Shown in pieces: positions 2,391 to 27,140 of a stretch of 41,690 nt of DNA. Source of the DNA: Promethearchaeia archaeon. GTDB taxonomy: Archaea; Asgardarchaeota; Lokiarchaeia; Sigyniarchaeales; SOKP01. Location of the stretch: NCBI GenBank assembly GCA_029856105.1, contig JAHQWH010000059.1, positions 1 to 41,690 of the forward strand, given 5' to 3'. The notes under the pieces are model-generated. The model was not told the origin of the DNA and ran no database searches. It saw only the letters and a program-made list of their open reading frames with translations. The translations under genes were made by a program, and so were the position numbers. Position 1 is the stretch's first letter; every line of letters begins with the position of its first letter.

Positions 2391-2939
2391 TTATAAAATA
2401 AATACTACTGCTGCTAATACAGAAGCCCACTCATCTTCATTTCTAACAGTAGCATCTTCAGTAATATTTTTGGTTTCAATTATTTTGCCTCCCATCTTAT
2501 AAGTTTCGCGTTTTTCATCGTAGTTAGCATCGGGATCAAATGGAATCCCCAGTGTTGAAGCTAACATTTCTGCTGCTAAATCTTCGGCAATATCTCCTGT
2601 CTTCTCGGCTTTTACCCCGTATGTATGATGTTCACTTAAATACCCATAATGACCTTTATCAGCAGGTTTTGCAATTCCTATAGACGCACAAATCAAGCGA
2701 TTAAATTCGTTAGATTCTGCTCTAGCCATCACAGTATAAACAATCTGTCCAATGCGGAGTTGTTTTAAACCATCTTCCTTACTTATTTCAATACAATATG
2801 GAGGAAATATGGAGGAAACAATAACTAAATTGAATTTTTCAATTCCCGCATCTCTAAGGGCCAATTCAAAAGCTGCTAACTTAGATTTATGAAATCCTTT
2901 TCCTTTTACAAAGAATACCTTTTTTGGGACAAGTGACAT
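2391..2939 (-). CDS. pdaD: Pyruvoyl-dependent arginine decarboxylase
   Basis: VPKKVFFVKGKG, AFELALRDAGIEKFNLVIVSSIFPP (Ser-Ser autocleavage site), GYLSEHH. Confidence 0.92.
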   Translation of the reverse strand: MSLVPKKVFFVKGKGFHKSKLAAFELALRDAGIEKFNLVIVSSIFPPYCIEISKEDGLKQLRIGQIVYTVMARAESNEFNRLICASIGIAKPADKGHYGYLSEHHTYGVKAEKTGDIAEDLAAEMLASTLGIPFDPDANYDEKRETYKMGGKIIETKNITEDATVRNEDEWASVLAAVVFIL

Positions 2940-3255
2940 GTTTCGATATAAATTCTATTATAGATCTTAATTAATAAATAAATAAATAAATATGATTAAT
3001 ATTTAAACTTATTTAAAATTTATAGATTTACTTTGAACCCTCTATTCTAAATTCTTGATGTAAATCTTATTTATCATAATATTTATGACAATGTGAGATA
3101 ATACAATAATATTTAATATATTTAGAGTTAAATCGAAAAAATAAAGTTTACGAAGATTATTATTAAAATTATTATACCCTTTTAATCATTATAAAATAAT
3201 AGATAAAATTCATGAGTAATTAATTAAATTAGAATTTTTAAAAAAAATTGCATAG

Positions 3256-4281
3256 ATGTATTTAATAAATCTAGAATGTTTAATTCTAATTATGAATAAA
3301 AAACATAAAGAAGATTACTTAATTCAAAAAATAACTCCGTTTAATGTTAATGAAGTGAAAAATGTTGACGATCTTTTAAGAGCCCTTAAAAATTGTGGAT
3401 TTCAAGGAAGAAACTTAGGGAAAGCTTTAGATATTCTTTATAAAATGGTTAGTAATGCTGACATTTTAACTGTATTAACTTTAAGTGGTGCTATGATTCC
3501 CGCAGGTATGGGAGATTTAATTTATACATTAATGGACCATAAATTAATTGATGTTTTAATTACTACAGGAGCAAATATCATACATGATTTAGTAGATGCA
3601 TTAACTGATGTAGGACATTATATTGGAAGTTCTACTATAGATGATAATGAATTGTTTAAATTGAGAATTAATAGAATATACGATACTTTACTACCTGAAG
3701 AAAATTATAAGGTGGTTGAGGATGCTTTATTAGAGATAATTCATGAAATATTTGAATTTAAAGAAATTAACATTTTACCTTCAGATCTTTTAGCTAAAGT
3801 TGGTGAAAAATTAAATAACAGAAGTCTTTTAACTGTGGCTGCTAAAAACAACATTCCTATTTTTGTCCCTGCTTTTTCTGATTCTGAATTTGCATTAAAC
3901 TTAATCAAATATTCTATAAAAGAAGATTATAAGTTCAATTTTGATATTCTTGGAGATGTATTAAAATTTGCTGATATCATAAGAAAATCCAGAGAATATG
4001 GTACTTTAATAGTTGGAGGGGGGGTTCCAAGAAATTGGGCTCAACAAATCTTTCCTTTGCTTGATCAAATAGAAAATGTTGAGAGGATGGGTTATAATTA
4101 CTCCGTCAGAATACATACTGCTACTGAATATGATGGAGGTCTTTCAGGATGTACTATTTCAGAATCAAAAAGTTGGGGAAAATATTCTTTAGAATCAAAA
4201 TATATAAGTATATGGTGCGATGCAACCATAGCATTACCAATTTTAGTTACTGGATTATTACAGAGATTGAAAATCATCTAA
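3256..4281 (+). CDS. Deoxyhypusine synthase-family protein (true start may be ATG 3292)
   Basis: GFQGRNLG, LSGAMIPAG, TTGANIIHD, INRIYD, PAFSDS, GGGVPRN and DGGLSGCTISESKSWGK with the catalytic Lys in SWGK, then DATIALP. Confidence 0.88.
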   Translation: MYLINLECLILIMNKKHKEDYLIQKITPFNVNEVKNVDDLLRALKNCGFQGRNLGKALDILYKMVSNADILTVLTLSGAMIPAGMGDLIYTLMDHKLIDVLITTGANIIHDLVDALTDVGHYIGSSTIDDNELFKLRINRIYDTLLPEENYKVVEDALLEIIHEIFEFKEINILPSDLLAKVGEKLNNRSLLTVAAKNNIPIFVPAFSDSEFALNLIKYSIKEDYKFNFDILGDVLKFADIIRKSREYGTLIVGGGVPRNWAQQIFPLLDQIENVERMGYNYSVRIHTATEYDGGLSGCTISESKSWGKYSLESKYISIWCDATIALPILVTGLLQRLKII

Positions 4282-4637
4282 AAATATCTTTTTTAGAAAT
4301 TTTTCAATTTTAAAATCATATTTCAATAGGTGAATTGAAAAATGTGTTTTGAAAAGATAATTTCATAAAAATACCTTACCAAAAAATACTTATAATGAAG
4401 AATTAAATCCTATTTGAAATAGAAAATCACACTTTAAATTTAAGCAACATTAATGGTTTTGATTAAATAATAAAAATTCATTTTATTTTTGCTTTCATAG
4501 GGAAAAGCAATTGATGAGTTCATTTAAAATTCATTTAAAAATCTGATTAAAAAGAAATAATTATTAATGTAAAAAAAAATTTAGACTCACTTGTATTGAA
4601 TTGGGGATGTCATTAGATTATAATAGTCTATTTAAGT

Positions 4638-4745
4638 CTAAAAGTCTTCAAAGTCACCATCATTTTCATCATAAACTTCCCAATCATCATCTTCTTCGTG
4701 ATAATTTTCCCAATCTTTTTCTTTATCTTTAATTTCAATATTCAT
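4638..4745 (-). CDS. 35-aa acidic Trp-containing small protein MNIEIKDKEKDWENYHEEDDDWEVYDENDGDFEDF
   Basis: Below the ORF-track cutoff. ATG at 4745, TAG at 4638-4640, Shine-Dalgarno GGAGGT at 4753-4758 (7 nt spacing). Composition is strongly non-random for an AT-rich intergenic region. Confidence 0.65.
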   Translation of the reverse strand: MNIEIKDKEKDWENYHEEDDDWEVYDENDGDFEDF

Positions 4746-5361
4746 TTTAAAAACCTCCAATTTTATTTTGTTTTTATTGAGATTAAAAATATCAAATAGT
4801 ATCAATTATAAGGAAAACCAATAACATATATAAATATTTCTATATCAACTCATAGTGTTTCTGATCTATTTATTCAATGTTAGAATTGTCAAGTCTGGAT
4901 TAGGGTAAAGTATTAGAGAGTTAGTCTTTCTATTCTTTTTAGTTAAAAATTATTGTTTGGAAATCCTTTCGTATAAAGATATATTCAATACTGTGGATAA
5001 CTTAAATCGAAAATTTACTTTACTAAAAGCTTAAAAAAATCTGGAAAATTAATAAATTTGAAAATTCAGTATAGGTATGTTCATGTATTCTCTCAAAATC
5101 TCGATAATTTCGACAAAATAAATTAAAGATAAAAGATAAAATTGTATATAAATCTCAGAAATATTTGCATTTATGCTATGAATATAACATGGTTGGAAAT
5201 TATTTAAATTAAAAAATTTGCATAGAATATTAGAGTACTTATTCTATTCTAGTGGTGGTTTATTTTTAAACTTCTAATAGTTGATTCGTTTAAGTAATTT
5301 CTTGCTGAGTTAAAGAAAAATCCCATTTTGAGATATAATTGGTGAGGGATCTTACTTAGTA

Positions 5362-5508
5362 ATGTTGTTCTTGATTATGGTGAGTAGATTTCTTGTAGGG
5401 ATATTTTGGATAAGAAAGGACTTGACAGAAAATTATTTTAATTCAGAAATACTTCCCACATTTGAAGATCAGGTGAAAAAATGGAAGAAAATTTTTATAT
5501 TTCCCTAA
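5362..5508 (+). pseudogene. Possible remnant or small membrane protein (48 aa)
   Basis: MLFLIMVSRFLVGIFWIRKDLTENYFNSEILPTFEDQVKKWKKIFIFP. The frame stays open for about 10 codons upstream to a TGA, which suggests the 3' end of a decayed gene. Confidence 0.25.
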
Positions 5509-5518
5509 TATTAAGATC

Positions 5519-6982
5519 TCATCCAATTACATGATAATGTAAGGAAGAATGATGGTAATATCTTGGAGATATAATATAAGCTAACGGTCTTTTTCTCACA
5601 TACTTTTCTAAATCTTTTTCTAAGAAAGTATATGCTAAAAGATGTACAATTGGGATTATTAATTGCGTCCATTCATCATATTGGCTTTGTGAGAAGCTAT
5701 TTTCAACTTTAATGATTTCAGGATTCATTGCTAATAAGAGAGCATATTCAATTAATTCAGGTACAAATTTGGCACTTTGAGCCCGTAGGATGTTCATTTC
5801 TGCCCTTAATAAAATCATCCAAGTTTCCTTAACATCCCATGGAAATAAAGCTGAAAGCGATGCAAAGAATTTAGAACCTTCAGGAATATCACGCAATAAA
5901 TCTTTAAAAAAGGTTAGTTTTGATAGATCTCCTATAAAGGGGATAACAAATGAAGCATATACGACTTCTTTATTACTTAAAGAACCTATAGGTTGATCCT
6001 TAAAGATTTTTTTCAAATTTTTTAAATATTCATCACCCAACGCTTCACTTCCATGATGAAGAGACCAGTTCGAGAATAATCTTCCTATCATTGAAGTGGC
6101 TTTTTTAATTCTTTGATAATGAGGATAAGCATGTAAAAATTCTTTTATATCATGAGCGGGATTATCTTTTCGATATTTATATTGCATATTTTTTTCAATT
6201 TTTAGGATATCTCTATTTGAATCAGGTATGCTTAATTGAGGATTTCTCATAAAATTAATAGAAAGTGTCATCATTCTCTTCTCTGCTTGTTGATAAGTAT
6301 ATTCTCTTTTTGATATCGAGTTAAATGCTTTTTCTAATCCGCCTAAATTAGTATTTAACAGATAAACTGCCCAGATTGGAGAAAAAACTCCCGTTTTCAT
6401 TATATCGCCCACTTTATTAATTAAGGATGAAAATTCTTCATCAAGTTGATCGATTAGATTAATCAAGACATTTAAATCCCTTGATAAAAAACGTTCTCGA
6501 GCTTCAATCTCATCAATCATATTATCTCCTATAGGTGTTAAGACAACATTTTTTCCATTGACTCGTACAGCCTGATTAATTGATTGCTTTTGATCATTTA
6601 ATCTCAAAATTTGATCCTTAATAATACTGACTTGAGTATCCATCTTTTTTATCTCATTCTTCGATTTAGAAATTTGAGACTTCAGCTTTTTTCCTTTTCC
6701 AATTTGTAAATAACTAGCTAGCTTACTACCTAGAGAAGCATGTTCATATTCTCTTTCTATAGATAATAACTCCTTATTTAGTCCATGAATCTCGCTATTT
6801 AGTCGATCATAATTCATCTTAAGAGTATTTATCTCACTTTCCGTTGGTAGATCGGCACTTTCTTTCCCGTATTCGCTAATAAAGGAGAATTTCAATAAGT
6901 CTGAAATCTCATCAGAAGAACAAGGAATATCATTCCTTTTTTTAATCGATGTTAATATTTCTAAAGCTCTTTCACAATCCAT
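5519..6982 (-). CDS. Hypothetical protein: winged-helix-like N-terminus with inserted coiled coil, helical body, His-rich C-terminus
   Basis: 487-aa ORF with heptad-like region at about aa 48-137, VVLTPIG wing motif and C-terminal YYHHSSLHYHVIG. Starts 1 nt after the upstream stop. Confidence 0.75.
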   Translation of the reverse strand: MDCERALEILTSIKKRNDIPCSSDEISDLLKFSFISEYGKESADLPTESEINTLKMNYDRLNSEIHGLNKELLSIEREYEHASLGSKLASYLQIGKGKKLKSQISKSKNEIKKMDTQVSIIKDQILRLNDQKQSINQAVRVNGKNVVLTPIGDNMIDEIEARERFLSRDLNVLINLIDQLDEEFSSLINKVGDIMKTGVFSPIWAVYLLNTNLGGLEKAFNSISKREYTYQQAEKRMMTLSINFMRNPQLSIPDSNRDILKIEKNMQYKYRKDNPAHDIKEFLHAYPHYQRIKKATSMIGRLFSNWSLHHGSEALGDEYLKNLKKIFKDQPIGSLSNKEVVYASFVIPFIGDLSKLTFFKDLLRDIPEGSKFFASLSALFPWDVKETWMILLRAEMNILRAQSAKFVPELIEYALLLAMNPEIIKVENSFSQSQYDEWTQLIIPIVHLLAYTFLEKDLEKYVRKRPLAYIISPRYYHHSSLHYHVIG

Positions 6983-6983
6983 T

Positions 6984-8159
6984 TTAATTCACCATTTCAA
7001 GTAATGGAATTTCTACTAAAGGAACTTCAGTTCCCTCTAATACAATTAATAAATCTTTATTTTGATTTTTTGAATATACGAAACTGTCTTGATTTATAGC
7101 AAGTTGGATGAGTAGTGCTAACTCTTCTCTCTGCCTATTCCAAGACATCTTAGAACCTTCTAATTGGTGTCGATATGAATCGATTTTAACTAAGGCAAAA
7201 AGAAATTCAAAAGCTAATTTCTCCCACTCCTTAGATTGAGTTTCTGCGAATTTGTCTTGAGATACTGTTTTCCATATCAATCCTTCTAAGTCAGCAAAGT
7301 GAATTGTACCATCAGGAGCAACCACGCAATCTTTATCTAGCCACACATCTTGATATATGATTCCTGTTATGTTATCTCCTTCTTTTTTTGCCGATCTCAA
7401 AAATAAAGACAATAATGCTATCCCGCTTTTGATAAAGTTTATTTCAAATTTTTCAATAAGTTTTTCGGTATCTAAATCAAATAACGAAAAGAAAGAACTA
7501 GGATTAGCAACTAAACGAGAAGATTCAAAATATAATCGTATGTTCGAAGGCATTAATCTAATTTCTTGATAAAAATGATCTTTATAGGTACTAAACCAAA
7601 AGAACTTACGAGCCATTTCTTCAATTTCAGGAGGTAATTGTACGACCCCTATGACAGGGCAAATGTGAGCACCATTGATGGAATCTAATTTTGCTAACTT
7701 GGAGAAAGCTAACTCATCAAAGGCATTGATAAAACCTTGACAACCATATGGGCTTTCTCCCATCCAAGATTCGCCCATAATAAAACCTGTTCCTGTTGTT
7801 AATTTATCTACAAGATGAAGGCATGTAGAATCGCGACAAGCATTTCGTATACGAGGGGGTGATAATAATTTTCCTTCGTACATATCTTCATATGCTCCAC
7901 ATCCTTTAATAGCTAAAAAAAAAGTTTTGTCATTTAAATTGACTGAAAATTCTGGAAATATTGCGTTGCGATTTTCATCTTTTATAGCATTTAGTTTTGG
8001 TTCTTTGATATCATGTAATTCCGCCGTAGCGGGACCTATGTATCCTGTTATCCATTTCTTATATGATTTGAATTGCGGATTTATTGCTGAAATTTCTGCA
8101 TTTACAGAATATAATTGTAAATCAATTGACTCATGAAGAAATCGTTCGAAAGTATTCAA
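6984..8159 (-). CDS. SelO/YdiU-like atypical protein-kinase-fold protein
   Basis: Collinear SelO-like motifs: ENRNAI (DGRAI), LAIKGCG (LQLKGAG), YG...AFDELAFS (DG...SIREYLIS), NGAHICPVIGVV (LGIPTTRAL), IRLMPSNIRL (TRVAPSHIRF), and a divergent catalytic segment ..DKDCVVAPDGTIHFADLE. Confidence 0.65.
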   Translation of the reverse strand: MNTFERFLHESIDLQLYSVNAEISAINPQFKSYKKWITGYIGPATAELHDIKEPKLNAIKDENRNAIFPEFSVNLNDKTFFLAIKGCGAYEDMYEGKLLSPPRIRNACRDSTCLHLVDKLTTGTGFIMGESWMGESPYGCQGFINAFDELAFSKLAKLDSINGAHICPVIGVVQLPPEIEEMARKFFWFSTYKDHFYQEIRLMPSNIRLYFESSRLVANPSSFFSLFDLDTEKLIEKFEINFIKSGIALLSLFLRSAKKEGDNITGIIYQDVWLDKDCVVAPDGTIHFADLEGLIWKTVSQDKFAETQSKEWEKLAFEFLFALVKIDSYRHQLEGSKMSWNRQREELALLIQLAINQDSFVYSKNQNKDLLIVLEGTEVPLVEIPLLEMVN

Positions 8160-9832
8160 AAGCGTCTCACCTTTACTTTAGGCATTTTAGTTCCAAATAA
8201 AGTAACCTTTCCCAATTTTGGGGCGTTAAAATCATCATAAATATTTTTTGCAGGGCTATTCCATTCAGCAATTTCTGTTATAGCAGAATTACATCCTAAT
8301 TCTTTTAAAATTGATAATCGAGCATTTACTAGTGCTCTACCAATTCCTTTATTTCTGAAAGCAGGATGAACATACAGCCCATATAACCATCCCGTTTCTT
8401 TTCCGGGAGTAGCAAATCCAACGCCTAATAGTACTCGGTCTAAATATATTTCTGGTTTTTTATAATTTCTTCTGAGGATCTCTTTTAAGATCTCTTCAAC
8501 CCATTCTTCTTTGGTAGAAGCTGTTGCGATTACTATAATATCACTCTTAGCCGCTTCAATAACCCATTTTGCATCCCTTTTTTTGGTAGTGCCACTATCT
8601 TCATTAGCAATCAATCGCATGATTGCATCTAAATCTTGAGCTGTTGCAGGCTCAATTAGATTAGCATCATAATGAACTTCCATTCCCTGCAAGTATTTAA
8701 TCTTAAACACATCATACTTCTCGATAGTTTTAAAACCAACGAGTCTAGAATGTTCAGCGTGGGCATATTTTACTTTAGTATATAATATTAAGTCCTCAGA
8801 ATATTTTCCAAAAAATGTCCCAACCTTTCCATTCGGTTCAATAAATCCGATTCCTTTAAGCTTTTCTTGATTATGAGCCGAAACAATTGTTTTTCCTTGA
8901 ATTTTTGCTCTGGAAAGATATGCAAGAATCATTTCTGAATAAGGAGAATCAACAGAAAATTCTAACCCTCCTGGCATTTTTCTTTCTACAACCACTTCTT
9001 GCTTCTTACCTCGTGCTCTTATAACTCTTGGTTTCCATCTATAATGTTCATAGACTACATAGAAAATTATAGCCATAAATAGTAATGGGGCCCAATAGGT
9101 AAGAAGATACATCCAAATGCAAAATGGGCGTAAGTAACTTGAAGATGTTATAAATACATATGAATCCAATACAAATTCTGAATAATAACCACTACTATAA
9201 CCTTTATCTTCTTCACGTAATACTTCTCCAATTAAATACCCTTCAGGAGTAAAATATTCATCAATTGTGTAAGTAGCTTCAAATTGTCCATATACATCAT
9301 TTCTTGAATATTGCCCCGCAGAAGTTAATCGTTTTCCTGTAAATGGCATGAGATGTCCTAACCAAATCAAACCATCACCAACAAACTCATAAGTCTCATT
9401 AAGCATGGAATAGGTATCATCTTGAATTCCTCCTGGTATGTGAAACCAGACGTTTAACCCCGTAGCATCATATTCTTGATCACCAAAAGAAAGATATTGT
9501 CCATCTATTAATGAATAAGTAAAACTATAATAATCCTTTCCCCCGTAATCCTCTTCGAGATATCCTTCAAGCCAACTCTGAAATGTCCAAGTAATTACAC
9601 ATAAGACACTAGCAACTGATCCACTATAATCAATTTCATAATGTCCATTTGCCCTAAAACTCTCCGTATAACCTAGATACCATCCTCCAGTTCCAGTAAT
9701 GTCCCAATTGTAAACATAATCAAATTCAAGGTCATGATCTGTAAATTTTATACCAAGATACGGAATTCCAAATAATTGAATAACAATTGAAATTATCAGC
9801 ATTAATAAAAATAACATCGATCTTTTTTTCAT
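8156..9832 (-). CDS. Membrane-anchored GNAT acetyltransferase with putative extracellular domain
   Basis: Hydrophobic N-terminus (aa 6-28), Tyr/Gly/Asp-rich beta-type region, TM helix at about aa 238-261 followed by basic RWKPR, and C-terminal GNAT motif A LYVHPAFRNKGIGRAL plus NSPAKNIY. Confidence 0.82.
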   Translation of the reverse strand: MKKRSMLFLLMLIISIVIQLFGIPYLGIKFTDHDLEFDYVYNWDITGTGGWYLGYTESFRANGHYEIDYSGSVASVLCVITWTFQSWLEGYLEEDYGGKDYYSFTYSLIDGQYLSFGDQEYDATGLNVWFHIPGGIQDDTYSMLNETYEFVGDGLIWLGHLMPFTGKRLTSAGQYSRNDVYGQFEATYTIDEYFTPEGYLIGEVLREEDKGYSSGYYSEFVLDSYVFITSSSYLRPFCIWMYLLTYWAPLLFMAIIFYVVYEHYRWKPRVIRARGKKQEVVVERKMPGGLEFSVDSPYSEMILAYLSRAKIQGKTIVSAHNQEKLKGIGFIEPNGKVGTFFGKYSEDLILYTKVKYAHAEHSRLVGFKTIEKYDVFKIKYLQGMEVHYDANLIEPATAQDLDAIMRLIANEDSGTTKKRDAKWVIEAAKSDIIVIATASTKEEWVEEILKEILRRNYKKPEIYLDRVLLGVGFATPGKETGWLYGLYVHPAFRNKGIGRALVNARLSILKELGCNSAITEIAEWNSPAKNIYDDFNAPKLGKVTLFGTKMPKVKVRRF

Positions 9833-10132
9833 TGAATATAATCAACTCTAAAGGATTTAATTGTGTGACTACTACTACTATTAGATTGAAAGTCAAACAT
9901 TAATAATATGATCGATCTAACAATACTCCTATATAAAGTTTATTCAGATTAACTCAATGTAATCAAAACTTTTAAATAGGCTGTTTAAAATTGATAGAGT
10001 ATTTTAGATTTATAGAAAAAAAGCGCTTGCTCAAAGCCCCCTAGCTTAGATTTATGATAACCTATTCTTTTTACAAAAAAAAAACTTTCTTAGGGACAAA
10101 TGACTTGATTTTAGTTTGGTTCTAATATATCT

Positions 10133-22916: not shown

Positions 22917-25091
22917 TTAACTCTTAAAAACAACTTCTTTGGTCAAATTATCCAGTTTCATTAGCTTTTGATAGATAAAGGTTCTAACCTTCTCAGGAGT
23001 TATTTTTGGGTTGTTGAATACTAAATCTTGTACTACGGTATGATATTTCTGGCTTTTTTTTGCCAATTTTATGTGGAGTTCATTCTGTTCGTCGTATAAT
23101 GGAATTGGAAAAGAGAAAGGTCTTTTATGAATGTGCCTACTCGATTTTATGAGCTTAATGTTTTTCGAAAGTATTAGAGAGTTGAAAATTGCCGATAGAT
23201 AATGCGCCTCGTTTTGTGAATCGGTGGAATAGTAGTAATTTTCTGAACAAATTATTATTTCCTTTTCTTCGTTATCGATAACTGCCGATTTCAGACGGGA
23301 ACCACTTGCGTTGTATACGACGATATATTGTTTGTTATTAATTTGTTTGGTTAATTTATTCCAATAATTCAAGTTTGAGAAAAGATTATCGATTTCGCTC
23401 GTTTCTACCTTGTTTTCTCTATAAAATTTATTAAGCTCATTGTAAAACTCTAAAGCTCTTGGATTATTTTTAAGGAAGGTCTCGTCAAATTCAAAATTTT
23501 CGTTAATTGGCAAAAATACGCGTTTAAATCGCTTTATACCGAATGGTATTAGATCTTTGTTTAAAAAAGCCTTAAAATTGAATTTGTTTTCAATTTTTTT
23601 ATTTTGAAAAGAATACCTCCAATTTTTCTTAGCGCGTAATTTAACTTCAGGATCGGAAGAGATTTGTAGATATTTTTCATTTTCCCCGTCTATTTTAAAA
23701 AAGACAAGCGCTCGAGGTACCAAAGTCGCCCCTTGAAGGAATTTACGTCTGTATTGACTTTCTGAAAGCGTATTTAAGAAATTTAGATCTTGTTCGGGTA
23801 AAATAATTTTTGCTCCCTTCTCGTCGAATGCTAAGCTAGAGTAAGTTGTTGCTCGTTGAATTTCAAGAGCGCTATCGTAAATTTTAGTCTTAATTGGATA
23901 TTTTTCGGAAATTGGAATTTCCGAACTTCTTCCGATATATTTTGCTTTTAGACAGATATGCTCTACGTTAAAGAAATAATTGTTAGGAAAATCCCATATT
24001 TCAATCTTATTAAAAACTGAAAACGCGCGGAACTTATAGCAATGATCTCCGTTTAAAATGCTCTTAGTAAGAACAAAGAATATACTTCCTCCAATTTTTA
24101 AGAATGCTATAGGGATCGCGTAAAAAAAAACTGCTGCTAGTTCAATGTGGGTGATGTATTGACTTTGGGGCTTAATTCCTAACGTTTCAGATAGCGTTCT
24201 AATCTTTATTTGGTACTCCTTATTGACAATGTCTTTGTAAGTTAACCACGGAGGGTTTCCAATAATTAAGTCAAACGAATGATAAAGCTCCGATAAACGA
24301 ATCTTAAGGTTTTTTTTGTTCTGGTCGGGAAAAAGAGCGTCTATTAGAAAAATATTTATTTTGGGAAGTTTATAATTTTCTGCTTTGTAATAATCGAAAA
24401 GTAGCAATAATATATTTGCCTTAGCCGTCAAGGTTGCTAATAGGTTAATATCAAAGCCGTAAATATTTTCAATCGCATCAAATTTTTCATTTTTTTTAAC
24501 GTTAGAATTGAGGATTTTGATAATGATCTCTATTAAAAAACTACCAGAACCGCAGGAAGGATCTAAAGTCTTTACACCCATTTCGTAAAAATCGTCAATC
24601 ATTTTTTTAGCGAGTTCAGGTGGAGTATAGAATTCTCCTAATTTATGCCTTGTTATGATAAAAAAAACTTGCTGATACAATTTTTGGAAGAGATCGTGAT
24701 AAGCAAAACGAGAATCTTTTAATAATACGTGTATCTGGTTAATAACATCTTTTTTGAGATCTGGACAAAAAAAATATTCTAATTCGCTTAAGTTATGATT
24801 CTGATAAATATCTTTGAGGCTTTCCTCTCCTTGAGCGTTTAATTTTCTCACTATTAAAAGCTTTAGAATTAGTGCGAAGTAGGAATGTTTTAGAAAAAGA
24901 GAATGATCAATATCATTTCCATAAATGCGTTTAAAAATCGATTTCCAAAGTCGATATTTCTTTTGGAACTCTAATTCGTCTAATTTCGCTTGTTTTTCAA
25001 GAAAATTAGTGATCTCGTTATAAAAAACCGAATTTATTCCAAAGAAATTCAAAATCTTTTTCGAATCAATTACTTTTTCGTACTCAACCAT
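22917..25091 (-). CDS. N6-adenine DNA methyltransferase (gamma class, Eco57I/type IIG-like MTase plus TRD)
   Basis: LGEFYTP, LDPSCGSGSF (motif I), GFDIN, IGNPPW (motif IV), long C-terminal specificity region. No nuclease motif recognised in the short N-terminus. Confidence 0.88.
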   Translation of the reverse strand: MVEYEKVIDSKKILNFFGINSVFYNEITNFLEKQAKLDELEFQKKYRLWKSIFKRIYGNDIDHSLFLKHSYFALILKLLIVRKLNAQGEESLKDIYQNHNLSELEYFFCPDLKKDVINQIHVLLKDSRFAYHDLFQKLYQQVFFIITRHKLGEFYTPPELAKKMIDDFYEMGVKTLDPSCGSGSFLIEIIIKILNSNVKKNEKFDAIENIYGFDINLLATLTAKANILLLLFDYYKAENYKLPKINIFLIDALFPDQNKKNLKIRLSELYHSFDLIIGNPPWLTYKDIVNKEYQIKIRTLSETLGIKPQSQYITHIELAAVFFYAIPIAFLKIGGSIFFVLTKSILNGDHCYKFRAFSVFNKIEIWDFPNNYFFNVEHICLKAKYIGRSSEIPISEKYPIKTKIYDSALEIQRATTYSSLAFDEKGAKIILPEQDLNFLNTLSESQYRRKFLQGATLVPRALVFFKIDGENEKYLQISSDPEVKLRAKKNWRYSFQNKKIENKFNFKAFLNKDLIPFGIKRFKRVFLPINENFEFDETFLKNNPRALEFYNELNKFYRENKVETSEIDNLFSNLNYWNKLTKQINNKQYIVVYNASGSRLKSAVIDNEEKEIIICSENYYYSTDSQNEAHYLSAIFNSLILSKNIKLIKSSRHIHKRPFSFPIPLYDEQNELHIKLAKKSQKYHTVVQDLVFNNPKITPEKVRTFIYQKLMKLDNLTKEVVFKS

Positions 25092-25099
25092 TCTTTATC
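25063..25099. repeat. Left copy of 37-bp direct repeat (att-like), containing the MTase start codon
   Basis: gaatcaattactttttcgtactcaaccattctttatc, 35/37 identical to 26921-26957. Confidence 0.9.
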
Positions 25100-25191
25100 T
25101 TTGCATGGAACCAATAAAAATGCTGGCATTAGAATAATAAAATATTCTTGGACCATTTTTTTGTTAAAGAGCATTCTGAATTCTTCATGTT

Positions 25192-25620
25192 TTAAAGGCG
25201 GTGCTTACGACATATCAGAGGAATTGATAATGCAGAACCATCGCTAAATCTAAAATGCTTGTCGACAACAAATTTCTCAAGCTTCTTATCAAAGATAAAA
25301 AATTCGGAGCCTTCTGTAATTGTAAGAACTCTTGTTAGGGGATTATCGTCATCTTCGCAAACAATTTTATATAAATCAACCAAGGATTTTGAATCTAAAC
25401 CAACTCTTTCTAACTTCGCTTCGAGATTCGTGGCGTGAGAAAGAAAATTTACCGCCAGCAAATAACCGCTCGACGTATGGAACGCCCTACCATCTTCACT
25501 CTCCACAACTTCGCTAAAAACATAATAACTGATTCCGCTAAAATCTTTCCCATCCAACAAAAAGGACATTAAATCGTGATATTCGCTATTTGAATGAACG
25601 AAGTAAAGCCAATCTACCAT
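25192..25620 (-). CDS. Hypothetical protein (element cargo)
   Basis: 142-aa ORF preceded by GGAGGA SD-like sequence; no recognisable motif. Confidence 0.7.
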   Translation of the reverse strand: MVDWLYFVHSNSEYHDLMSFLLDGKDFSGISYYVFSEVVESEDGRAFHTSSGYLLAVNFLSHATNLEAKLERVGLDSKSLVDLYKIVCEDDDNPLTRVLTITEGSEFFIFDKKLEKFVVDKHFRFSDGSALSIPLICRKHRL

Positions 25621-25719
25621 AAATTTTATTCCTCCATTATAATAACAAAAAACAAGTATTTAAAGTTATAGGTAATCTGCGATACTTGGTTGACCCGGAT
25701 TAACGTCAGTCTGCTTTAT

Positions 25720-25863
25720 AAGTAGAATACGACACGGATTTTGAAGAAGATTTAGAGCTTAAAATGTTATGGAGAAAAATACGAAGAAGTAAAATCTCTT
25801 TTTCTTGATTTTATAGCTAGTTTTGAAGTAGAATACGACACGGATTTTGAAGAAGATTTAGAG
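25720..25863. repeat. Perfect 38-bp direct repeat, two copies (25720-25757 and 25826-25863)
   Basis: aagtagaatacgacacggattttgaagaagatttagag twice, separated by 68 nt. Confidence 0.9.
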
Positions 25864-26013
25864 AAATTAAGCAATATTTTTGAAACGATTCACGATTTTT
25901 ACGAAGGATGTAGTTACCGTTTAGAGAACGAAGAACCAAAAAAAGAATACAAAGAAATAGTTCAAATCGCAAAAAAAATATACGAAACTCTTGAAAACCA
26001 AAACGTTAAATGA
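25756..26013 (+). pseudogene. Start-less (5'-truncated) acidic helical ORF, 85 codons
   Basis: ..CYGEKYEEVKSLFLDFIASFEVEYDTDFEEDLEKLSNIFETIHDFYEGCSYRLENEEPKKEYKEIVQIAKKIYETLENQNVK*. No in-frame start after the upstream TAG; its TGA overlaps the GAGG SD of the next gene. Confidence 0.6.
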
Positions 26014-26023
26014 GGAAACAACT

Positions 26024-26608
26024 ATGGTAGAAAAAGCTCAAACGATAAGAAAAGTAGTAAGCCAGAAGACCTTAGACTCCAAGAAATTCATAGTGGGCGC
26101 TAAGGGAGAGAGAGTAAGATGCGAGTTTTGTAAGGGGAAAGTCGTGGACATAATAAGACACTTGCAGAAATGCCACCGAAATCCGAGCAACGCCCCTAAG
26201 ATCGAAGTCGATTGGGAGTATTTGGAGCAATACCAAGAGTTCGAGAACTATTTAATTAAAGACCCTCGCACCGAAAAAGCGAAAGAGTTTAACCAGATTC
26301 TCGCCCCTAAGGGCAACCCTTTCGAAGAATTCGAGGTAAAAATGTTGGATTACGCAATCAACCTACCTAAAACCCATAAAGACAAGATGATAAACCAGAA
26401 ACTCGACGAAATATTGACCGCAGGCATCGAATTAAGGCTTTTGAACAAAGAAGAGTTCCTCGACAAGTTAAAGGACAAAGTGAGGAAGGGATATCACCTC
26501 TACCTATTTGATCGGCTAAAACCTACCACTATCGAAGAGATCGAGCAAAACGAAGGTATTTTGTGGCAAGATCAAAGAAAGTCTGTAAAAAAAACCAGAG
26601 GGTATTAA
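26024..26608 (+). CDS. C2HC zinc-finger protein (element cargo; ATG 26024 preferred over TTG 25991)
   Basis: CEFC-x9-H-x3-C in RCEFCKGKVVDIIRHLQKCHRNP; GAGG upstream of ATG 26024. Confidence 0.72.
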   Translation: MVEKAQTIRKVVSQKTLDSKKFIVGAKGERVRCEFCKGKVVDIIRHLQKCHRNPSNAPKIEVDWEYLEQYQEFENYLIKDPRTEKAKEFNQILAPKGNPFEEFEVKMLDYAINLPKTHKDKMINQKLDEILTAGIELRLLNKEEFLDKLKDKVRKGYHLYLFDRLKPTTIEEIEQNEGILWQDQRKSVKKTRGY

Positions 26609-26611
26609 ATT

Positions 26612-26965
26612 ATGGCAAAAGCAGAACCAACCAAAAATTACGACAATACAAGGATTTTAAAGATATTGCTAACAGCCAAGATTTTTTCGCTTTTTTTAGA
26701 TTTTTTTTTAGACCAAATCTACTACAGGCACAAGAACGGATACCAAGCGTCTTTAGGAGAGTTCGTTGGAAGGTCGTGTCGCGTCGCCCCTCTTAGAAAC
26801 ACGCTACGAGAAGCGATTAAAGACTGTTTTGAGTTCATGGAAGCCCACAACGACAAACGCCTTTTAAAGATTCGATTAGACGAGCAATATTTTGCTCAGA
26901 ACTTGGCAACTTCTATTTTTGAATCAATTACTTTTTCGTTCTCAACCATTCTCTATCAAGTATAA
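26612..26965 (+). CDS. Hypothetical protein (element cargo) whose 3' end reads through the right repeat
   Basis: 117-aa ORF 3 nt downstream of the Zn-finger gene; last about 14 codons come from the repeat and flank. Confidence 0.55.
   Translation: MAKAEPTKNYDNTRILKILLTAKIFSLFLDFFLDQIYYRHKNGYQASLGEFVGRSCRVAPLRNTLREAIKDCFEFMEAHNDKRLLKIRLDEQYFAQNLATSIFESITFSFSTILYQV
26921..26957. repeat. Right copy of 37-bp direct repeat (att-like), encoding an orphaned MTase N-terminus MVENEKVIDSK
   Basis: gaatcaattactttttcgttctcaaccattctctatc. Confidence 0.9.
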
Positions 26966-27140
26966 AATCCCAATCAAATATATCTTCAGAATTAGACTTA
27001 TCATCTATCTTTGGCTCTAAAAAAAGAGCTTCAATTTTTTCATTCTTTCGTATTTTTTTACCTACTGTGTTTCCTGTCATCTCTTACTATTTTTTACACA
27101 TTTATGACTTAAAGATTAATATTTCCTTAGATTACTTTAC

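Follow-up and report, generated by a model that had tools for sequence, protein, structure and literature searches.

Here we report a strain-specific insertion at the start of a conserved N6-adenine DNA methyltransferase (MTase) gene in a Loki-type Asgard archaeon. The window, that is the whole stretch of DNA analysed, comprises the 41,690 nucleotides (nt) of contig JAHQWH010000059.1 (C61 in our numbering) from the Promethearchaeia archaeon assembly GCA_029856105.1. The source genome, denoted G000, is a Promethearchaeota (Loki-type) metagenome-assembled genome (MAG) of 238 contigs, 92% complete and with 6% estimated contamination. On the whole, the insert is a real, well-resolved and strain-specific insertion of decayed mobile-element DNA, and as such fairly ordinary. 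As to its origin, we consider, with a probability of roughly 55%, that about 1.9 kb of foreign DNA recombined between the actin-related-protein (ARP) operon and the MTase gene by a homology-anchored entry at one end and an illegitimate joint at the other, with no dedicated recombinase.

The insert and its empty site

The insert is bounded by a direct repeat of 42 nt, with 39 of the 42 positions identical between the copies at 25058-25099 and 26916-26957, which are 1858 nt apart from start to start. The two copies and the native genes around them are listed here, the G numbers denoting relatives.

22917 to 25091, minus strand: MTase gene, 724 aa, intact (Pfam N6_Mtase 7.5e-13, Eco57I 1e-8, MmeI_Mtase 1.5e-5)
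25058 to 25099: left repeat copy, holding the ATG with 8 nt before it and the first 11 codons (MVEYEKVIDSK); the working MTase start
26916 to 26957: right repeat copy, read as the resident MTase start and now a dead end, MVENEKVIDSK followed by IEVAKF*
26928 to 27080, minus strand: orf50, small native upstream open reading frame (ORF) whose stop overlaps the resident MTase start; 81-82% protein identity in G009 and G017
27141 to 27689, minus strand: orf182, last gene of the conserved ARP operon, marking the native right flank; weak PLDc_2 hit, 84-96% identical in relatives

The ATG of the MTase is located at 25091-25089 on the minus strand, inside the left copy, and the dead-end frame that starts from the right copy has 17 codons, running from 26949 to 26896 on the same strand. 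The initial annotation had described a repeat of 37 nt at the MTase start; our analysis confirms it and makes it slightly longer. Exactly two copies of the 42-nt repeat exist in the whole 3.66-Mb genome, and in 100 Markov shuffles of the window a pair as good as this one, within 3 kb, does not occur. In addition, the DNA between the copies has a GC content of 0.368, higher than the genome mean of 0.319 (standard deviation 0.031) and in the top 6% of equal-sized windows.

The longest exact run common to both copies is 19 nt, below the usual k-mer sizes of assemblers, and the flanks are collinear with those of the relatives; therefore, an assembler join is very unlikely. A MAG in 238 contigs with 6% estimated contamination does leave some room for an assembly or binning artefact, namely a chimeric join across the repeat. 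Apart from the short exact matches and the collinearity on both sides, however, the insert lies internal to the 41.7-kb contig, and a captured host fragment and a divergent tract, such as are found at its left end, are not made by assemblers. An artefact is thus highly improbable.

Of the relatives with the whole region on a single contig, the two closest (G009:C1 and G017:C65, at about 91% identity) carry just one core copy, in which the sequence up to window position 25099 joins directly to that from 26916 onward. The same empty arrangement is present at lower identity in the more distant genus members G136, G015, G014, G011 and G024. Since several relatives carry the empty site, the segment between the repeats is, as judged from these alignments, a genuine strain-specific insertion. 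This is in accordance with the initial annotation, which took the segment for an insertion that restores the gene and swaps its upstream region: the 724-aa MTase is whole, and the native upstream region is replaced.

The MTase orthologues in G005, G009, G017 and G122 have 87-93% identity, and their synteny is kept across the genus. Since in most genus members the gene follows the conserved ARP operon directly, the MTase is a core, apparently orphan methyltransferase, outside any mobile restriction system. As a candidate restriction partner orf182 is rejected, since it is a dead-PLD gene of the ARP operon. Within the spacer, the 73 nt of window 26918-26990, which comprise the last 20 or so codons of orf50 and the MTase start, are the best-conserved part across the genus; they remain about 85% identical where the MTase is only about 70% identical.

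Entry at the methyltransferase start

The left end of the insert, where the evidence on its entry concentrates, has the following features.

25025 to 25095: hyper-divergent tract, read as an imported MTase 5'-end allele, about -4 to +67 relative to the ATG
25100 to 25112: linker of 13 nt between two captured gene starts; 0 matches for its origin
25113 to 25185, minus strand: captured 5' fragment of a host membrane-protein gene, 73 nt, with 29 nt upstream, the ATG and 14 codons (MVQEYFIILMPAFL)
25070 to 25156, minus strand: upstream ORF of 28 codons, from the captured membrane-gene ATG to a TAA 20 nt inside the MTase frame

Based on the MTase alignment of G000 with G017, G005, G122 and G009, 13 substitutions private to G000 are found within 25025-25062, compared with 2.5% per nt along 2.1 kb (binomial P 1.8e-8). 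Two further private substitutions, at 25082 and 25095, fall inside the left repeat copy. The relatives are 92-97% identical to one another across this tract. Furthermore, all three mismatches of the repeat are on the left copy (Y4 for N4, gataaaga for gatagaga, and TCG for TCA), and Asn4 is invariant in all MTase orthologues examined, the working copy of G000 having Tyr4. At all three mismatches the right copy agrees with the empty-site allele (G017 and G009), and the right flank is identical to G017. Because the private substitutions cluster at the left and the mismatches are all on the left copy, the working 5' end of the MTase (about -8 to +67) is best read as an imported, diverged allele, and the right copy as the resident start.

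Next to this tract, the captured membrane-gene fragment is identical at 66 of 73 positions (90%) to G000:C214:2179-2251, the start of an intact gene for a 234-aa membrane protein. With the G005 orthologue it shares 93% identity, and with that of G024 96% over 49 nt, so the gene of G000 itself is no closer. The captured start is oriented the same way as the MTase, and the 28-codon ORF beginning from it shares both its frame and its TAA stop with the native orf50 at the right copy.

For the MTase, the consequence is an intact gene in which eight residues are altered within residues 4-23, and which now lies 1.86 kb from the ARP operon, the native spacer being about 230 nt in G009 and G017. The gene appears to be cut off from its native upstream region and preceded by insert DNA, with the 28-codon ORF overlapping its start as orf50 did. 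This ORF may keep a coupled translation, and a promoter may have come with the insert. The earlier suggestion that excision could switch MTase expression is speculation.

We propose the following course of entry. Foreign DNA of about 1.9 kb (roughly 25025-26915) would have recombined into the junction of the ARP operon and the MTase, carrying at its left end two host gene starts from earlier residences, namely the MTase 5' end and, 13 nt further in, the membrane-protein gene start. The MTase-like piece would have acted as the homology anchor, with a crossover near 25020, while the other end would have formed an illegitimate joint with the resident gene, 34 nt inside it, at a T-run microhomology. 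In an equivalent variant, a Campbell-type integration via 75-90 nt of homology would have been followed by a deletion trimming the longer right-hand copy. By either route, the imported start would drive the intact gene and the first 11 resident codons would be stranded 1.86 kb away, an arrangement from which the imperfect 42-nt direct repeat would follow. No dedicated recombinase would be required, and the insert would now be an immobile relic.

The right joint is consistent with this course. The homology to the family of orf117, the last cargo gene, stops at ...TCTATTTTT, right where the repeat begins, and the T-run in which it ends is also present in the MTase start. The native 3' flank of two orf117 homologues is similar at 17 of 22 positions to the next 22 nt of the MTase start, in AT-rich sequence where chance similarity may play a part, and such a likeness would give a microhomology joint.

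Homology-facilitated illegitimate recombination is known from naturally transformable bacteria such as Acinetobacter and Streptococcus pneumoniae, and among the known systems it appears to be the one that the insert is most like. Both have one homologous anchor with donor polymorphisms and the other end at a short microhomology, both leave a small target duplication or deletion, and neither involves a dedicated recombinase. Donor-type polymorphisms on one side only of the repeat, as belong to this process, are what we find here. Unlike the known cases, the present one comes from a natural population of an Asgard archaeon instead of an experiment, and its anchor is very short, a diverged gene start carried on mobile-element debris.

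The likeness to integrative elements that target gene ends appears superficial by comparison. Archaeal elements of the integrase type target gene ends and bring a replacement copy, including those with 'suicidal' integrases of the SSV type (PMC7253208). With these elements the insert shares a direct repeat across a gene end, a gene made whole via the element copy, and empty sites in relatives; it differs from them in having neither a whole nor a split integrase, in a site that no related element is found to reuse, and in imported sequence that runs past the repeat. The initial annotation had proposed a site-specific element with a protein-coding attachment (att) site. The direct repeats and the empty site agree with such an element; an integrase is missing, reuse of the core is not found in the genomes searched, and the DNA at the left is divergent.

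In its full form, the integrase explanation holds that a decayed provirus, plasmid or satellite integrated site-specifically by its own, since deleted, integrase or by one acting in trans, the 42-nt repeat being attL and attR and the element copy restoring the gene. The repeat at the gene end, the restored gene and the empty sites in relatives agree with it, and extra tyrosine recombinases do exist in some genus members. However, no recombinase, transposase or nuclease family is detected in the interior ORFs by Pfam and PHROG, which bears out the initial annotation as to the absence of a recombinase between the repeats, and the G000 assembly has no match to PF00589 or PF00239. The six regions inspected around the extra tyrosine recombinases of relatives contain none of the module genes described below, and a link of the cargo to those integrases is therefore rejected. 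Apart from the orthologous MTase starts, searches of G000 and 135 family genomes give no further copy of the 42-nt core. Most directly, the DNA left of the core (25025-25057) is divergent, where a crossover within the core predicts resident sequence; because of this, the homology-anchored insertion fits better than an integrase crossover. Integration by an integrase is possible, but clearly the less probable course. A transposon is not suggested either: the interior ORFs have no hit to a transposase family, no inverted repeats are found to pair the insert ends, and an imperfect duplication of 42 nt is also unlike the short target duplication of insertion sequences and transposons.

The relatives G005 and G122 show the MTase start hit in another way. 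They share a different left junction, at window 25085/25086 (MTase codon 2-3), with no flanking repeat, so their insertions, which differ in content, lie within about 15 nt of the spot used in G000. In G122:C35 (L115, about 2790-7836, reverse complement) there is an insert of about 5 kb, including the gene of a 1281-aa acidic tandem-repeat protein, and the MTase gains a new in-frame N-terminus. In G005:C77 (L014 3809-8064) the insert is a 4.25-kb block of STAS, RsbT-like kinase, PP2C, histidine-kinase and response-regulator genes, and the MTase frame is broken.

Several points weigh against the homology-anchored entry. First, a 42-nt repeat spanning a gene end is a classic mark of integration by an integrase too. 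Second, at least two independent insertions (in G000 and in the ancestor of G005 and G122) are located within about 60 nt around the start codon. The shared spot hints at a preferred site, which is simpler under a site-specific enzyme, and the independent hit of the G005/G122 lineage at the same few nucleotides thus speaks for an integrase, its lack of a flanking repeat against one; the clustering may also reflect a sequence that breaks easily or is favoured, or may simply mean that insertions are tolerated nowhere else. Third, G000 also misses the XerA-like gene that is carried by 38 of 42 genus genomes, in an assembly 92% complete. The absence of an integrase from the genome is therefore weak evidence, and the XerA-like PF00589 gene of G000 was probably not assembled. 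Fourth, a donor allele closer to the divergent tract is not found among the 135 family genomes, the best matches to 24990-25112 being ordinary orthologues of 78-85% identity, and localised mutagenesis associated with the junction therefore stays a minor alternative.

This last alternative takes the repeat as a target duplication from microhomology-mediated, error-prone break repair or template switching, and the nearby substitutions as repair mutations instead of import. Besides the missing donor, it can draw on the T-run microhomologies at the joints and on a perfect 38-nt duplication at an internal mosaic joint (25720/25826), which shows that such joints occurred. However, 13 one-sided substitutions in 38 nt, with none in the right copy, would demand very heavy mutagenesis. 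The changes also leave the gene in frame and its N-terminus plausible, much as expected of a natural allele, and at the sufC locus of G017, described in the last section, an allele of about 1 kb is clearly imported. Break repair of this kind is quite unlikely, and the homology-anchored entry remains our preferred reading.

The cargo genes and their relatives

Between the captured gene starts and the right repeat copy, the following features are identified.

25192 to 25620, minus strand: orf142, intact accessory gene, whose homology unit extends to about 25721
25720 to 25757 and 25826 to 25863: perfect 38-nt internal direct repeat, at the joint of the orf142 unit with the truncated orfS
25756 to 26013, plus strand: orfS remnant, the C-terminal part of a 134-aa zinc-finger protein, lacking a start codon (tblastn to L058 931-1335, L062 and L063)
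26015 to 26608, plus strand: orf197, intact CxxC..H..C zinc-finger protein, probable ATG at 26024
26612 to 26965, plus strand: orf117, chimeric frame, homologous only from about residue 35 (26713)

The interior of the insert is a mosaic of partly decayed mobile-element debris, because each cargo gene is distributed differently, the DNA homology covers single genes, genes are truncated and a host fragment is captured. The initial annotation had expected mobile-element cargo in partial decay, and the truncated orfS and orf117 agree with it. The homologous part of orf117 is the C-terminal 80 or so residues of a zinc-finger family of 175-180 aa, and the frame loses its native stop (...TSIF*) precisely where the right repeat copy begins on the left. 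As for the 38-nt repeat, its right copy lies within native orfS sequence and its left copy abuts the truncation point; it is a sign of template switching or unequal recombination, a small echo of the main repeat.

The first cargo gene, orf142, is present in 6 of 121 family genomes and has 51 metagenomic relatives, all from Lokiarchaeota or hypothetical. It has no hit in Pfam or PHROG. The AF2 model (pLDDT 88.8) predicts a ferredoxin-like fold with no convincing relative in the PDB. Candidate structural relatives are rejected, the best Foldseek E being 0.048 and the best VIA-align Z 4.9, with generic ferredoxin-like folds only, including weak rows of HUH Rep domains. No HUH motif is present in the orf142 sequence, and the protein atlas search gives no lead.

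For orf197, 36 relatives are found, in Promethearchaeota only; in the metagenome scan a single-protein query found nothing and the relatives came from a profile query. The AF2 model is poor (pLDDT 53), and the PDB profile search gives chance hits only. In metagenome contigs of Promethearchaeota the relatives belong to a PCNA-linked module, in the order of a PCNA-like gene, an orfS-like gene, a HAD/PNKP-like gene, one or two small ORFs and orf197, followed by ordinary host genes. Being the last gene of the module and next to host genes is the position of orf197 in contigs L054, L058, L062, L063 and L083, and the three contigs with orfS homologues (L058, L062 and L063) also carry orf197. From this gene order, orfS and orf197 in the insert are a collapsed end of such a module. 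The position of orf197 is a point for the integrase explanation, since the last module gene before host DNA is where an att site would sit; the cargo genes never being together elsewhere is a point against it, as orf142, orf197 and orf117 are found together in no other searched genome.

Among 154 order genomes, full-length orf197 is in G000 only, and the others have fragments. The DNA homology to its relatives ends at the gene borders. A complete copy here with fragments elsewhere is the signature of mobile-element genes entering and decaying. For orf197, SSV-style splitting of the gene during integration is rejected, as the truncation points of the fragments are scattered instead of being at one site. 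In addition, a stop-riddled relic of the middle of orf197 is observed at the same intergenic spot in three species (G000:C194:4323-4496, G005:C19 and G017:C52), between a nitroreductase-like gene and a radical-SAM gene. Since this locus is orthologous in the three, the relic predates their split.

A viral origin by direct match is rejected: relatives of orf142, orf197 (single sequence or profile) and orf117 number 0 in IMG/VR and GenBank phage records. Neither does the satellite label of the initial annotation find support, the Pfam and PHROG scans giving no hallmark gene and viral contigs no relatives. As for CRISPR, no spacer-like match to the insert exists in G000, and four short matches in relatives lie outside repeat arrays.

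In genus g21, orf142-like genes (G099 and G086; L029 2019-3335, L030 73-1443 and L031 1949-3082) always follow the gene of a 377-456-aa protein with zinc ribbons, a C-terminal IEHQG-type motif and a weak match to a phage 'HNH endonuclease' profile (phrog_559, E 8.7e-8). By these features, it could be a nuclease partner of the orf142-like genes. G000 has no homologue of it. Free-standing homing endonuclease genes of phages are known for co-conversion of flanking markers, and their homing leaves no duplicated target. The insert resembles them in being composed of patchy single-gene units between conserved genes, with donor-derived sequence in the gene alongside, and the zinc-ribbon protein adjoining the sister-genus orf142-like genes, with its weak phage profile match, adds to the likeness. 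It is unlike them in that an endonuclease gene is found neither in the insert nor in G000, and in that the target here is duplicated.

Among described Asgard elements, aloposons are tRNA-targeting elements with tandem giant genes, described together with Heimdallarchaeal viruses (PMC8813620), and NMV2S is a putative Asgard satellite, a circular helicase-primase/Cas4 element (bioRxiv 10.64898/2026.08.12.739948). Like the insert, all of these are Asgard mobile DNA with mostly unannotated genes, but they have no genes in common with it; aloposons and NMV2S are rejected as its relatives on gene content and architecture.

Parallel loci and significance

The closest parallel to the MTase locus is in G017:C34 (L016 6015-7872), where orf142 precedes an intact sufC whose identity to the gene of the relatives is only about 80%. 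Beyond orf142 there is a stranded sufC start of 122 codons, 94% identical to the relatives, and the identity recovers further left. In this pattern of identities, the sufC locus matches the architecture at the MTase, with an imported working start, a stranded resident start, and orf142 between them.

Other loci show related arrangements. P0084, a metagenomic protein of 216 aa, combines in one frame the C-terminal part of an XPD/Rad3-type helicase (PF13307) with orf142 from about residue 17 on, which suggests that a helicase gene received an orf142 unit at its 3' end by recombination. G015 has an orf142 copy about 80 nt past the 3' end of the same MTase. In G136:C101 (L038 1015-1713), a 232-aa ORF has an N-terminal region with a signal peptide fused to the C-terminal two thirds of an orf117-family protein, which is another chimera of a host gene and a mobile gene. 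Elsewhere in the window, 2866-2915, the first codons of the minus-strand gene 2391-2939, recurs at 10031-10080 with 80% identity over 50 nt; this copy is intergenic, upstream of the gene 8156-9832, and may be another stranded gene-start fragment.

Three loci, namely the insert with its two tandem captured gene starts, the sufC locus of G017 and the fusion of orf142 to the end of an XPD-type helicase gene, lead to a wider idea, which we give tentatively and consider unlikely. By this idea, Lokiarchaeia may have single-gene 'hitch-hiker' cassettes, orf142, orf197 and their kin, that spread with no recombinase of their own; they would take with them the 5' ends of their last host neighbours and use these as homology anchors in the next genome. 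If true, core genes would time and again have their N-termini and upstream regions exchanged by such cassettes.

Overall, the insert reveals neither a new kind of mobile element nor a demonstrated regulatory switch. It is a datable example of foreign genes entering the core chromosome of Loki-type Asgard archaea, apparently via short homology rather than an integrase, and its entry rewrites the start and the upstream region of a conserved gene. The MTase start is a small recombination-prone site, with three insert contents from two independent events besides the empty state in species about 91-93% identical. Meanwhile, three accessory families specific to Promethearchaeota (orf142, orf197 and the orf117 family) and a PCNA-linked module are defined, which serve as markers for the poorly known mobilome of Lokiarchaea.

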